In this document: positions 39,001 through 42,000 of the stretch, one piece after another
Position numbering within the stretch: the stretch's first letter is position 1
Layout: each line of letters starts with the position of its first letter
DNA from: a virus
Taxonomy: Duplodnaviria; Caudoviricetes
Length of the DNA stretch: 57,067 nucleotides
Strand: one strand, 5' to 3'
IMG/VR virus record: IMGVR_UViG_3300005325_000006
Coordinates: 1-57,067 of that record
Program-made: the position numbers

Positions 39001-42000
39001 TCAGTATTACGCTATTAAAATTGCAGATAACTATTCTGCAAGTGGTTACTTAGGATTACGTAGAGTGGAGTTACAGACAGAAGATGGTGGGGGGGGTTGG
39101 GCAAACATCGCAAAGGTTAATGGGATCACGTCTGCGAACATCTCGAAAATTTGCGGGATCTCTACTGCAAACATTGCAAAAGTTAAAGGGGTTGCAGTAT
39201 GATTAATTATGAACAAGATTTGTATAGAGTGGCATATATGGAAGTAGTAAAAGAATCGTATCCTGATCCAATTGCTGATAAAACAGATGAGATCAAAACC
39301 AAACGCAAAGAAATCAAATTGTTTCATTCTGGACGGTTGCCCGGTATCCCATTGGATCCTGCCCTTAAAAAGGAGATGCATGATCGGTTAACGTCAGAAC
39401 TTGAAGATCTAATCGTATTAAACAGCCAGATCATCAACACCAACAAAAATAATAAACTGGTTGTTGATATCAAGTATAAGGAGGATATAAACGATTATGT
39501 TACTGATCCTGTCAACATATCCCGTGCAGCGTGGGGGGCCGTGCGGGTAGAACGGAATCAATTACTTAAAGAGAGCGATTTTGTAAACGCGGTGGATACA
39601 AAACTTAAAACGGCATTGAAATCCGCATGGAAAGATTACCGGCAATCGTTGCGAGACATCCCGCAAAATAACACCGATCCGTTTAACATTGTTTGGCCGG
39701 AGAGACCGGCATATGAAAAAGGATAACACAAAAGTTTATTTAGTAGTAGTTACTTATATTTAAAATATACTTATCTTTTAGTAAATGGAAGTGTAATCAT
39801 GATGTCAGCTAAGATCAACTCGGTGTTTTATCGTGATCCTTCGGAACCGATAGAACTTGCAACGAATAAGAACAGCGCGCCAACGTTTGACGGGTATCGG
39901 TTTCATCTCTCGCGTAACATCCAGGCAAACCTTGCAATGAGCACGGACGAGCAGGACGGATCGTATTATTCGCTCCTGATCGGGATGTTTGTGGACGGGA
40001 AAGAATGCCAGTACGTTACCGACTGGATCCGGAACGATGATGAGAGCCGGGCGAAAGATTACGCATTTGAGATTCCGGCATATTCAAAATACATGAAGCC
40101 CGGGAAAGTCCACACCATAGAGTTTAAACTCGGACGAAGAAAATTCGTTAAGAATTATATGCTTTATTCCGGAGCGCCGTTCGATGTAGCTAAGCGCGAG
40201 TATGATATGTTTGATTCAGTAACGTATTATTATAAAGTCGGTGTGCTTCCGGAGTGATTGTTACGTTTGAACCCGCCGGAACACCAACAATATTAGGTAT
40301 GACTGCATCAGAGTGGGAGGCGTTTGGATATGGCCTGAAAGACGGTCTGAAAGTCTGGAAACGGACACATATCAAGTATTCAGAGATCGATAATCTGGAT
40401 ATATCCCCCCAGATCAAACAGTCTTTAAAAGACGAGTTCCATTATTACGAGATCGGGAGCGACCTGCCAGAAGATATTGTTCTTCTAGCGTGCGTGATCT
40501 ATTTTGGAATTAACGATCTCCCTACATTAATGAAACTTGCGGGATCCTTCTTCGGATTCCAAGTTTAACTTTTTTCAAAAAATAAAAATTGGTTTGGAAA
40601 TCAAATGGTTTTTTTGAGGTGATAATAATGGGATTCGTACTACCCAATGTTCCACAAGGTTGCATTTTTTAACGTGGTTGTGTCCACAATTTGATCGGTG
40701 GGAATCGAACCCGCGCAACCCGTAGAGCCGGATTGCAACCACTTCAACCAAACCCCCCACGCAGGATTTTAACCTGCTCCGCATAGGATAGGCGCGTACC
40801 GGCGCCTCGTTTTAGTTCTGACTTTTTCAAGTCCTTCTGTCGCAGAAGGCGACCCGCATTTCTGATACTTAAATCAGCGCGGAGTTCGCCGCAGTTAAGC
40901 GGAACCGGCGAAGTTCTCCTATGCTCGATTCATGTGTCTCACCACATCGGTGAGGGATGCAACCAGCCGGATTCGAACCTGCGGAACGGGGCACTCCAAT
41001 ATCCCCGACGTTTGACCACTTTGGTATGGTTGCAAAAATTTTTGTGAGATTAACGGAAGATCGCGCTTCCGTGTGCAGGTTCGTACGTGTCAGTCTCGGG
41101 GGTGTTCCGCACAACCCCGCAATCGAATCCGACACAGGGGGTTTCATTGGGTTCATACGGAACGTCAGGCATAGAGTACTGATACGCATACCGTGCGAAT
41201 GCGAGCTTCTCCTGCTCATCGTGGGACTGTTTAAGTTTATACTCAGTCAGTCCGAGATGGACATCATTAAAATGCTGTTGGCGGTTATCGGCAGTGATCC
41301 ACCACACGTATCCAAGCTGGATACCGTCATGGACCGGCTGGCCGTTACCATACCCGTCTTTAATGAAGTAGTCATCGGGCGGTACAATTGCGCTTACCGG
41401 ATTGATAAGCAGGATCCCGATCATCATGATCGAGAGCATCATCATTTTCTTTGCATCAATCATCTTTTTTACCTCCACTATCTTTTTCACGGGAATCATA
41501 CCCGCAGTCCCCGCAGACTAAGGATTTGTCCTTCCTCACGCGGACGCGGCCTTTCAACCCGCAGTTAGGACAGGGGGATTTTCCTTCCCGTGCTGTCATA
41601 ATTATTGTGTGTGCGTTATAAGTATTTAATACTTTCCATTAATCCAAAAAAGGCACCATTTAGCAAGTGAAAAATATAAATAGTGAGAGCGATAATATGT
41701 GTTTAACAAAAAAGGTGAAACGAAAATGCGCACTAAACTTATCCCTCTTGAACTTACGGAGGATGAACTAAATATTCAGTCTGCATGTTGTTGCATCGCA
41801 TCGGTCGTAATACAGGATCCCGGGCCGGATATCGCACTATCAATGTCTCAGGATAACCGCGAGATGTTCTTGCGGGCTGCTTACATACTGGCAACGAAAA
41901 ACAAAGAATACGCGCATTACTTAGAGAAGGTAATGAAAGCCGGCATCCTGACAAACATAACGGAGGGAACTTAAATGAAAACAATTAATCCGAACGGAGT

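Follow-up and report, generated by a model that had tools for sequence, protein, structure and literature searches.

A tRNA-like RNA of a probable methanogen virus appears to carry the module of a widespread viral RNA family

What kind of RNA is encoded by the compact, highly structured element that lies between the tail genes and a short leftward operon of the tailed virus recorded as IMGVR_UViG_3300005325_000006? The DNA that we analysed is the whole IMG/VR virus record (57,067 bp, CheckV completeness 100%), here called the window, and the element in question, which we call E2, occupies 204 nucleotides (nt) of its minus strand at 40753-40956. The original prediction described a cloverleaf with an 8-bp helix at the anticodon position and about 128 nt of hairpins inside, compared this build to tmRNA in an archaeal virus, and otherwise left E2 as a structured RNA without assignment. 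The architecture itself holds: all elements of the cloverleaf are located on the minus strand, the five inner hairpins that had been named are present at their places, and RNAfold agrees. The lack of an assignment holds as well, as no Rfam family, the tmRNA models included, matches 40753-40956 up to an E value of 10. E2 is neither a tmRNA nor a decoding tRNA. Judged by sequence and pairing, it is a module of a viral RNA family grafted onto a tRNA-like frame.

The fold of the 204-base element is real. RNAfold returns the cloverleaf as the minimum free energy (MFE) structure at -84.6 kcal/mol (z -5.26), none of 200 dinucleotide shuffles is as stable, and the plus strand of the same DNA folds more weakly (-73.6, z -3.77). 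The 145-nt arm alone has a z of -4.33, with an MFE structure identical to the centroid. When the genome is scanned in sliding 200-nt windows, 40751-40950 (minus strand) ranks third of 2,280 by GC-corrected MFE, and several windows overlapping E2 are in the top 15. The frame consists of an acceptor-like helix of 7 bp, CCCUCAC (40956-40950) with GUGGGGG (40760-40754), followed by a discriminator G40753, a D-like hairpin of 5 bp, AUGUG-GUGAGA-CACAU (40947-40932), and a T-like arm; the 8-bp helix P1 encloses 128 nt (40916-40789). The parts of E2, all on the minus strand, are as follows.

40753-40956, minus strand: E2, a tRNA-like frame with a 144-nt module at the position of the anticodon arm, seen in the sequence and as the MFE cloverleaf; the build recurs in the viral loci L165, L153 and L140/L171
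40917-40924, minus strand: P1a, the 5' strand of the 8-bp closing helix, GCAUAGGA, then the junction G-AA; 8 of 8 pairs with 40781-40788, pairing probability about 0.96
40834-40916, minus strand: variable inner part with the hairpins UUCGCCG/CGGCGAA, CUGAU-UUAAGU-AUCAG and CCUUCUG-CGA-CAGAAGG, from sequence and fold
40820-40833, minus strand: P2, hairpin GACUU-GAAA-AAGUC with a GNRA tetraloop; a tetraloop hairpin stands at the equivalent place in phage members of the family
40783-40820, minus strand: conserved core, made up of the junction CAGAACUAAAAC, the hairpin P3 (A)GGCGC-CGGUAC-GCGCC(U), an A and the start of P1b; matched by the covariance model R2
40781-40788, minus strand: P1b, UCCUAUGC, which forms the 3' strand of the closing helix and immediately follows CGCCUA, from sequence and pairing
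40761-40777, minus strand: T-like arm GCAGG-UUAAAAU-CCUGC, beginning 11 nt after the core motif

Kinship with other viruses is concentrated in the core. By blastn, a weak signal appears in many unrelated phages and is confined to one 35-50-nt part of the insert; about 25 records of isolated phages contain the motif, their hosts belonging to Vibrio, Serratia, Erwinia, Pantoea, Pseudomonas, Escherichia, Achromobacter, Acinetobacter and Rhodococcus. Three of these phages, when aligned, have in common a tetraloop hairpin, an A-rich strand ending in UAAAAC, and a hairpin GAGGCG-n-6 nt-n-CGCCU-A. R2, a 38-position covariance model of the core built from 15 bacteriophage sequences with the window left out, matches the window at 40783-40820 (minus strand) with 51 bits (E 2.1e-9), while the next best match in the 158 kb searched reaches 11.7 bits. 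A run of 18 nt, CAGAACUAAAACGAGGCG, is identical in the window, in phage TPWB-08 and in Pseudomonas phage Psa21. Written as a degenerate IUPAC pattern, the core UAAAACGAGGCG-loop-CGCCUA is present in at least 119 IMG/VR contig stretches, where less than one occurrence would be expected by chance according to our own rough estimate (19 fixed bases in a collection of about 10^11 bases). The variable inner part has no detectable homologue except for two items: GAGAACUU at its start, which is common to E2 and L165, and the CUGAU...AAUCAG hairpin, which is present in the E. coli prophage CUS-3 too.

We fetched 80 of the at least 119 IMG/VR loci for family statistics, and counts given for 81 loci include the window. 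The motif is single-copy in each of the 80, and an ARAGORN tRNA lies within 300 nt of it in 34. All 44 tRNAs within this distance, 20 upstream and 24 downstream, are on the strand of the motif, and the same orientation is found in the annotated phages Kashira, TPWB-08, Psa21, D6, KEY and ChuuTotoro; E2 follows the same-strand rule with its two tRNA-like neighbours, E1 and E3, one nucleotide away on either side. The genes that neighbour the module vary from phage to phage, and the tRNAs that flank it in annotated phages are these.

Kashira and ChuuTotoro: module between tRNA-Phe and tRNA-Arg
TPWB-08: module between tRNA-Asp and tRNA-Gln
Psa21 and D6: module between tRNA-Pro or 'tRNA-OTHER' and tRNA-Asn

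Often the module comes directly after an odd tRNA, as in Faunus (31.1 bits, with an oversized anticodon region), Kashira (26.4 bits), and D6 and KEY ('tRNA-OTHER'). In TPWB-08 (L118 255-375) and Erwinia phage Faunus (L114 200-283) the free-standing module is closely preceded by tRNA-like genes whose anticodon arms or loops are greatly expanded and which recall E1 and E2; the T arm of the Faunus gene, GCAGGUUCGAAUCCUGC, is nearly equal to the T arms of E1 and E2.

The hallmark of the family is P1, then AA, a tetraloop hairpin, the strand (C)AGAAnUAAAAC, and the invariant hairpin GAGGCG-n-loop-n-CGCCU-A. These elements are arranged in at least three layouts among the 80 loci.

13 of 80 loci: free-standing 'large' type, P1 (8 bp) - AA - P2 - junction - P3 - P4 - P1'
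20 of 80 loci: CUS-3 type (E. coli prophage CUS-3), without a nearby tRNA but with a further conserved block upstream
Among the 80 loci: other layouts, including the tRNA-framed type

In CUS-3 the module (L115 81-372) lies between genes Q and S, within the leader of the late operon, and this 292-nt segment is present in 337 of 5,426 complete E. coli genomes, with an annotated feature at none of the 12 matches listed. The helices around the core change in a paired fashion. P1 is complementary at 8 of 8 positions, with different letters, in 12 of 13 distinct free-standing members of the large type, and in an RNAalifold alignment of four free-standing members the outer stem of P4 has two-sided changes in 7 of 8 pairs and its apical part in 2 of 4. 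This covariation supports an RNA structure around an invariant core. In 18 member loci no Rfam 15 family matches at gathering level, and with the limit relaxed to E values of 1 to 10 only tRNAs and a tmRNA of Achromobacter phage JWDelta are matched in member loci. We found no name for the family in the literature on tRNA-like RNAs of archaeal viruses or on RNAs of phage tRNA clusters, and the core as text turned up in one unrelated paper only, supplementary material being outside the scope of that search. That the module belongs to a widespread viral family not in Rfam 15 is thus well supported by sequence comparison.

How does E2 fit into this family? A T-arm-like hairpin follows the motif within 45 nt in 20 of the 81 loci; the gap between the two, given for 11 loci, measures 11 nt in the window, as compared with 12-13 nt in the 10 IMG/VR loci. 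The loci L165 (184 nt), L153 (195 nt) and L140/L171 (268 nt) have the plan of E2 by fold: a 7-bp acceptor, a 5' hairpin, an 8-bp helix, an inner domain that ends in the core, the 3' strand of the helix, a T arm, and the acceptor. The 8-bp helix pairs at 8 of 8 positions in all four tRNA-framed members with different letters (GCAUAGGA in the window; CCGUGAGA, GUAUAGGA and AUAUAAGA in L165, L153 and L140), and its 5' strand is followed by GA(A/U) in each of the four, by GAAC in the window. Because it is complementary with different letters in the four framed members, the 8-bp "anticodon helix" of E2 is, on comparative grounds, the P1 of the family, which makes E2 a tRNA-like frame with the module grafted onto it. 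E2 lacks the long P4 arm and the internal loop ACGAnCGA / GUAAUCAG, features of the free-standing large type, and its P1b comes directly after the core. We had also considered E2 as a circular permutation of the free-standing type; this was replaced by the simpler equation of its helix with P1.

E2 does not stand alone. It is the middle one of three co-oriented units, arranged E1-U-E2-U-E3 and separated by single U spacers (U40957 between E1 and E2, U40752 between E2 and E3).

40958-41033, minus strand: E1, tRNA-like but odd, with an acceptor of 7 bp, the canonical T-loop sequence UUCGAAU, a poor D arm, and an 11-nt loop on a 5-bp anticodon stem, from Rfam and relaxed ARAGORN
40690-40751, minus strand: E3, a tRNA-like element without a D arm, with acceptor UUGGUUG/CGAUCAA, an 8-nt loop on a 7-bp stem, and T arm GCGGG-UUCGAUU-CCCAC, from sequence and constrained fold

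E1, E2 and E3 alike have a stack of a 7-bp acceptor and a 5-bp T stem with a 7-nt T loop, interrupted by one T-stem mismatch in E1 and one in E3 (C.A), and none of the three has a 7-nt anticodon loop. E1 scores 26.4 bits against Rfam tRNA, below the gathering score of 29 bits, and is the sole tRNA-like match in the genome; ARAGORN finds it only at a relaxed threshold, and on its own it is no more stable than its shuffles (z -0.49). The constrained fold of E3 has -21.4 kcal/mol against an MFE of -22.2, and its T arm gives an 18-nt local match to tmRNA at 11.7 bits when Rfam is searched up to E 10. The three units are not ordinary tRNAs, because those of Methanoregula-type genomes, which represent the type of the likely host, number 45-46 per genome and, among those listed, score about 50-73 bits. 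The array forms an island of 344 nt (40690-41033) with a GC content of 54.7%, as compared with 27-32% in neighbouring non-coding gaps and 44.5% genome-wide, and its borders are sharp. The island ends at 40690; we dropped the idea of a fourth, decayed tRNA copy at 40600-40689, where the sequence is AT-rich and has a z of +0.52.

The virus that carries this array is a tailed virus, in which we identified structural genes and an MCM helicase.

3974-5335, plus strand: large terminase, 47.9% identical over 88% of its length to those of Synechococcus phages Ssp-JY42 and Yong-M4-211
26242-27117: HK97-fold capsid protein
35468-36670: Sipho_Gp37-like tail protein
47334-49412: MCM helicase
41050-41463, minus strand: P0121, a 137-aa protein with an N-terminal hydrophobic segment, by translation; last gene of the leftward operon

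The original prediction had called this an archaeal virus, and a Methanomicrobiales host is indeed probable. The closest cellular MCMs, at about 47-49% identity, are those of Methanoregula and other Methanomicrobiales, with viral MCMs nearer still (56-68%). The sole match of a portal-sized protein is a virus recorded with a Methanomicrobiales host, and stretches of the structural genes have counterparts of 72-86% DNA identity in 5 of 401 Methanomicrobiales genomes (plain DNA comparison of 20 of the 57 kb). Two MCM-related viral contigs, L002 and L004, encode a tRNA-Gln that begins with A and ends with UA, which we take to be the archaeal type. Each of these contigs has one canonical tRNA-Gln(UUG) downstream of MCM (L002 19629-19702, L004 16858-16930; 52-60 bits); at its default threshold, ARAGORN finds no canonical tRNA in the present virus. 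The assignment is only probable because the terminase resembles those of Synechococcus phages. Set beside the portal-sized protein, the terminase gives the ancestry of the virus a mosaic look, which touches the host call.

The array lies between the rightward tail module, whose last open reading frame ends at 40568, and the leftward operon that ends with P0121, the stop codon of which is 16 nt before E1. P0121 has two distant homologues (57% and 50% identity) and no Pfam family; a zinc-ribbon-like frame of 47 codons directly upstream of it (41456-41599, minus strand) was read by eye only. Elsewhere in the genome, the gene at 1722-2456 (plus strand) encodes 244 aa with the RNA ligase domain PF09414 (E 2.3e-17), and no kinase or phosphatase partner was seen among its small neighbours. 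A protein with a NUMOD3 motif of the homing-endonuclease type (22234-23043, plus strand) and an SPFH/Band 7 protein (23231-24094, minus strand) are encoded between the two halves of the structural genes. An AT-rich non-coding stretch at 44100-44750 (GC 26-29%), about 2.6 kb upstream of MCM, folds unusually well on both strands and is a candidate replication origin. A 10-mer of E1 matches six places in 1-270, at intervals of 9 or 39-45 bases, and so hints at a short tandem repeat.

What, then, does E2 do? Our best guess is a viral small RNA that is processed and stabilised as a tRNA would be. We hold with about even confidence that E2, as one of three adjoining co-oriented tRNA-like units, is a tRNA-like frame that carries the family module and is processed from the array; its transcription, processing, stability and partner, as outlined here, are what we infer. 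The fold, the homology of the core, the paired changes in P1 and P4, the co-orientation with tRNA genes and the recurring tRNA-framed layout are what the sequences show. The array would be transcribed with the upstream genes or by read-through from them. Host RNase P and tRNase Z would recognise the 12-bp stacks of acceptor and T arm and cut at the one-nucleotide spacers, releasing E2 as a stable, tRNA-shaped small RNA in which the frame may protect the module, much as engineered tRNA scaffolds do. The invariant core may then bind a protein or RNA of the host or the virus, one conserved broadly enough for bacterial and, apparently, archaeal viruses to have it in common. In phages the module is usually free-standing, between tRNA genes and on their strand; a subset of members, that of this virus included, is grafted into a tRNA-like frame.

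The proposal has precedents. The species 1 and 2 RNAs of phage T4 (rnaC/rnaD) are stable non-tRNA RNAs that lie among phage tRNA genes, are co-transcribed with them and are cut out by tRNA-processing enzymes. They resemble the present family in kind, as non-tRNA RNAs within phage tRNA clusters, and T4 is not among the blastn matches for the motif. In Haloferax volcanii, t-elements are tRNA-like, are cut by RNase P and tRNase Z, and can release an RNA that they flank (PMC4326828). Like the array described here, they are anticodon-less, tRNA-like processing signals in archaeal transcripts, with a coaxial acceptor/T stack of about 12 bp and a 7-nt T loop as in E1-E3, and E1 and E3 flank E2 in the same manner. 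The cargo of E2, by contrast, is inside the frame and not between two frames, and the comparison is one of architecture, not of sequence. An engineered tRNA scaffold that keeps the acceptor, T and D arms shields an RNA placed at the anticodon stem from nucleases and lets it be processed (PMC3753655). E2 likewise keeps these arms and extends the anticodon stem; it differs in that the scaffold is man-made and tested in E. coli, whereas E2 is natural, has degenerate D and T loops, and is known as a sequence. YrlA and other bacterial Y RNAs (RF02553) are modular, occur in phages too, and combine a tRNA-like domain with a second, protein-binding module (PMC4201824). Their order is the reverse of that in E2, the ends forming the Ro-binding stem and the tRNA-like part being internal (PMC4201824). 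RF02553 has no match in 40300-41400 up to E 10, the motif GNCGAA was not seen, and the model reaches 23.6 bits in Kashira against a gathering score of 69, across the tRNA flanks.

Several findings weigh against this explanation. In the context of the array the acceptor of E2 has a pairing probability of about 0.34, as local alternatives compete, compared with about 0.96 for P1, and the T loop (UUAAAAU) and D loop of E2 lack the G19-C56 type contacts of real tRNAs. Recognition by RNase P and tRNase Z is not assured, because these loop contacts are missing and the acceptor helix is contested; to fold the 344-nt array as three separate cloverleaves costs 3.4 kcal/mol relative to its MFE. A T5 run directly before E1 (41034-41038) could terminate archaeal transcription, and no convincing promoter for the array was seen on reading the sequence. 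No RNA sequencing run is listed for the stretch; the sole match is a DNA run, possibly the source, whose one contig is identical to the stretch and free of variants and joints. Within P3, five of the six pairs are constant across the 15 phage members, and a DNA site would show an equal pattern. The terminase, with its 47.9% identity to two Synechococcus phages, leaves the host less than certain. R1, a single-sequence covariance model of the whole of E2, finds only E2 itself in the window and 12 loci and nothing in five related viral records, and R2 finds nothing in the loci of about 22 kb from five relatives; the module is also absent from 151 Methanoregulaceae-family genomes (R1) and from 151 Methanomicrobiales genomes (R2). 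As far as these searches go, this virus appears to be the only putatively archaeal occurrence of the module.

Other explanations start from the same observations. One of them makes the frame the active part: E2 would be a tRNA or tmRNA decoy that titrates a host factor, such as a defence nuclease that cleaves tRNAs, or an enzyme of modification or processing, with the module serving as a handle or regulator. The row of three anticodon-less tRNA shapes fits this idea, and the RNA ligase of the virus is at most a hint in its favour; with RNA ligases of the PF09414 class, phage T4 mends cleaved tRNAs. Mycobacteriophage DS6A offers a precedent in that it carries little beyond the tRNA-like domain of tmRNA, and tmRNA is strongly inhibited by a similar molecule, which may act by titrating SmpB (PMC4131195). 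The D and T loops of E2, however, are the least tRNA-like of the three units, and the module is frameless in most family members; therefore the conserved function would reside in the module and not in the frame. We consider a decoy unlikely, though worth keeping in mind.

Unlikely as well is an element that acts as DNA. The inverted repeat AGGCG-N8-CGCCT and its flanks would be a protein-binding or cleavage site (for a homing endonuclease, for recombination, or as an operator) that spreads among viral tRNA regions, and the folds would be incidental. The P3 invariance, with no compensatory change there in the 15 phages, points to sequence-specific recognition, and a DNA site also fits it. The single copy per genome, the HNH endonuclease genes that adjoin the motif in Psa21 and JWDelta, and the NUMOD3 endonuclease elsewhere in this virus all suit a DNA site, as does the homing endonuclease SegB of T4, which reportedly acts in a phage tRNA region (PMC2330249). 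Yet co-orientation with tRNAs in 44 of 44 cases is unexpected for a palindromic DNA site, and the adjacent helices P1 and P4 covary. The sixth P3 pair also changes on both sides, being U-A in five phages and C-G in the window, and neighbouring genes differ between phages.

Could the array simply be decaying? E1, E2 and E3 would then be pseudogenes of a former viral tRNA cluster, E2 with an insertion, and none would have a present function. The below-threshold score of E1 next to the 50-73 bits of host tRNAs, its fold at the level of shuffles, the lack of a 7-nt anticodon loop in all three units, and the canonical tRNA-Gln that the relatives L002 and L004 hold elsewhere in their genomes would all be expected of pseudogenes. 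We regard decay as improbable all the same, as the supposed insertion belongs to a conserved family whose 8-bp P1 and T-arm spacing recur in unrelated contigs. The stems of E2 are perfect (z -5.26), the GC island keeps sharp borders, and in Faunus, Kashira, D6 and KEY the module is likewise preceded closely by odd tRNAs whose anticodon loops are oversized.

An intron-containing archaeal tRNA, from which 128-144 nt would be spliced at a bulge-helix-bulge to leave a decoding tRNA, was named by the original prediction as an identity that would overturn the tmRNA comparison, and it is very improbable. The insert is at the usual site of archaeal tRNA introns, and functional RNAs can reside in such introns, the pre-tRNA-Trp intron with its C/D box RNA being one example. 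We gave 1,719 internal-deletion variants of E2 to ARAGORN, which called none of them a tRNA at its default threshold. When the threshold was relaxed, the authentic E2 sequence yielded 1, 24 and 305 calls, broadly no better than controls with a shuffled middle, of which four of five gave more calls at each threshold (19-93, 81-441 and 411-1012) and the fifth slightly fewer (0, 22 and 186). A bulge-helix-bulge scan of E2 gave 11 candidates, compared with a mean of 8.65 in 100 shuffles, and a top score of 8 where shuffles reach 15; none was at the 8-bp helix, which as P1 is a perfect duplex without bulges.

A tmRNA-like tagging RNA is practically untenable, even though E2 has the tmRNA topology (RF00023, RF04321), with acceptor and T-arm ends and, in place of the anticodon arm, a long helix at the base of a large structured domain, as well as a short frame ending in A and a stop. 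ARAGORN at its default threshold calls no tmRNA or tRNA gene in the window, and the Rfam tmRNA models (RF00023, RF01849-51, RF04321) have no gathering-score match there. The original prediction had itself listed the missing G3-U70 and SmpB against a tmRNA, and both points are borne out: the acceptor pairs as C1-G72, C2-G71, C3-G70 and U4.G69, which gives no alanine identity, and PF01668 has no match in the virus or in any of five Methanoregula-type genomes, in a search that scored above cut-off in 10 of 14 reference genomes. Unlike tmRNA, E2 also has a D stem, and its T loop UUAAAAU is neither canonical nor of the tmRNA type. The startless frame GAG AAC UUC GCC GGU UCC GCU UAA that had been likened to a tmRNA tag is present at 40918-40895 (minus strand) and reads ENFAGSA*, while the frames that open the insert in the three homologues of the same build read ENLSG...(39 aa)* in L165, ENH* in L153 and EIRLGETA* in L140, differing in both length and ending. 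Since the frame is kept in none of the three, the likeness to the tag is, by this comparison, not beyond chance. A published tmRNA census discarded every raw hit in Archaea (PMC4131195). JWDelta does place the core motif inside a tmRNA gene, but in an excised spacer, beyond the Rfam model. That gene (L121 187-571; KF787094.1 about 19736-20120) is an unannotated, permuted, two-piece tmRNA (RF04321, 95.8 bits, E 2.3e-18), whose excised intervening segment of about 190 nt holds the motif as spacer and not as tmRNA.

A number of further searches and ideas led no further. Searches of 40560-41700 against MCM-related viral loci by blastn and nhmmer returned chance matches only, and exact patterns from four other stretches of E1 and E2 (one in two lengths) occurred in no viral and no metagenome contig. 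Relatives found through MCM share almost no genes around the locus, and no related loci were found through the Sipho_Gp37-like protein. An attP site was dropped, as the virus has no PF00589 integrase and matches to five host-type genomes were only of T-loop size and in assorted tRNAs. A mimic of CRISPR repeats was set aside too, the E2 insert having single, chance-level matches in 27 of 401 Methanomicrobiales genomes and no arrays, and no antisense target inside the virus rose above chance. Likenesses to C/D box RNAs, K-turns, hammerhead and twister ribozymes, 5S rRNA and RNase P RNA were weighed by eye and dropped, with no Rfam match. A coding role for the core, with changes that look synonymous in either frame, was abandoned because there is no start codon and no conserved stop, and the motif keeps to the tRNA strand.

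These results remove the more sensational claim of a tmRNA in archaea and link the strange tRNA-shaped RNA of a probable methanogen virus to a module of phage tRNA clusters. Small non-tRNA RNAs in such clusters have been known for decades without a function. The kind of RNA is thus familiar, as small structured RNAs of viral tRNA clusters and as tRNA-like scaffolds; the family itself, to judge from the searches above, appears to have no Rfam entry and no name in the literature. The module spans at least 119 uncultured viral contigs and about 25 isolated phages with a nearly invariant core of 25-30 nt, and several of the phages that bear it grow on laboratory hosts, which makes the question testable. 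E2 itself would be a natural counterpart of the engineered tRNA scaffold, and if the host is archaeal, the finding would point to an RNA module crossing the divide between bacterial and archaeal viruses. A broader view, which we put forward only tentatively, is that E2 is the first member from a putatively archaeal virus of a very widespread, uncatalogued family whose invariant core engages a machine common to bacteria and archaea, such as the tRNA-processing apparatus or the ribosome, or acts as a small ribozyme, and which is delivered either free or in a natural tRNA scaffold. If true, this would define a new class of tRNA-borne viral effector RNA, common to both prokaryotic domains.

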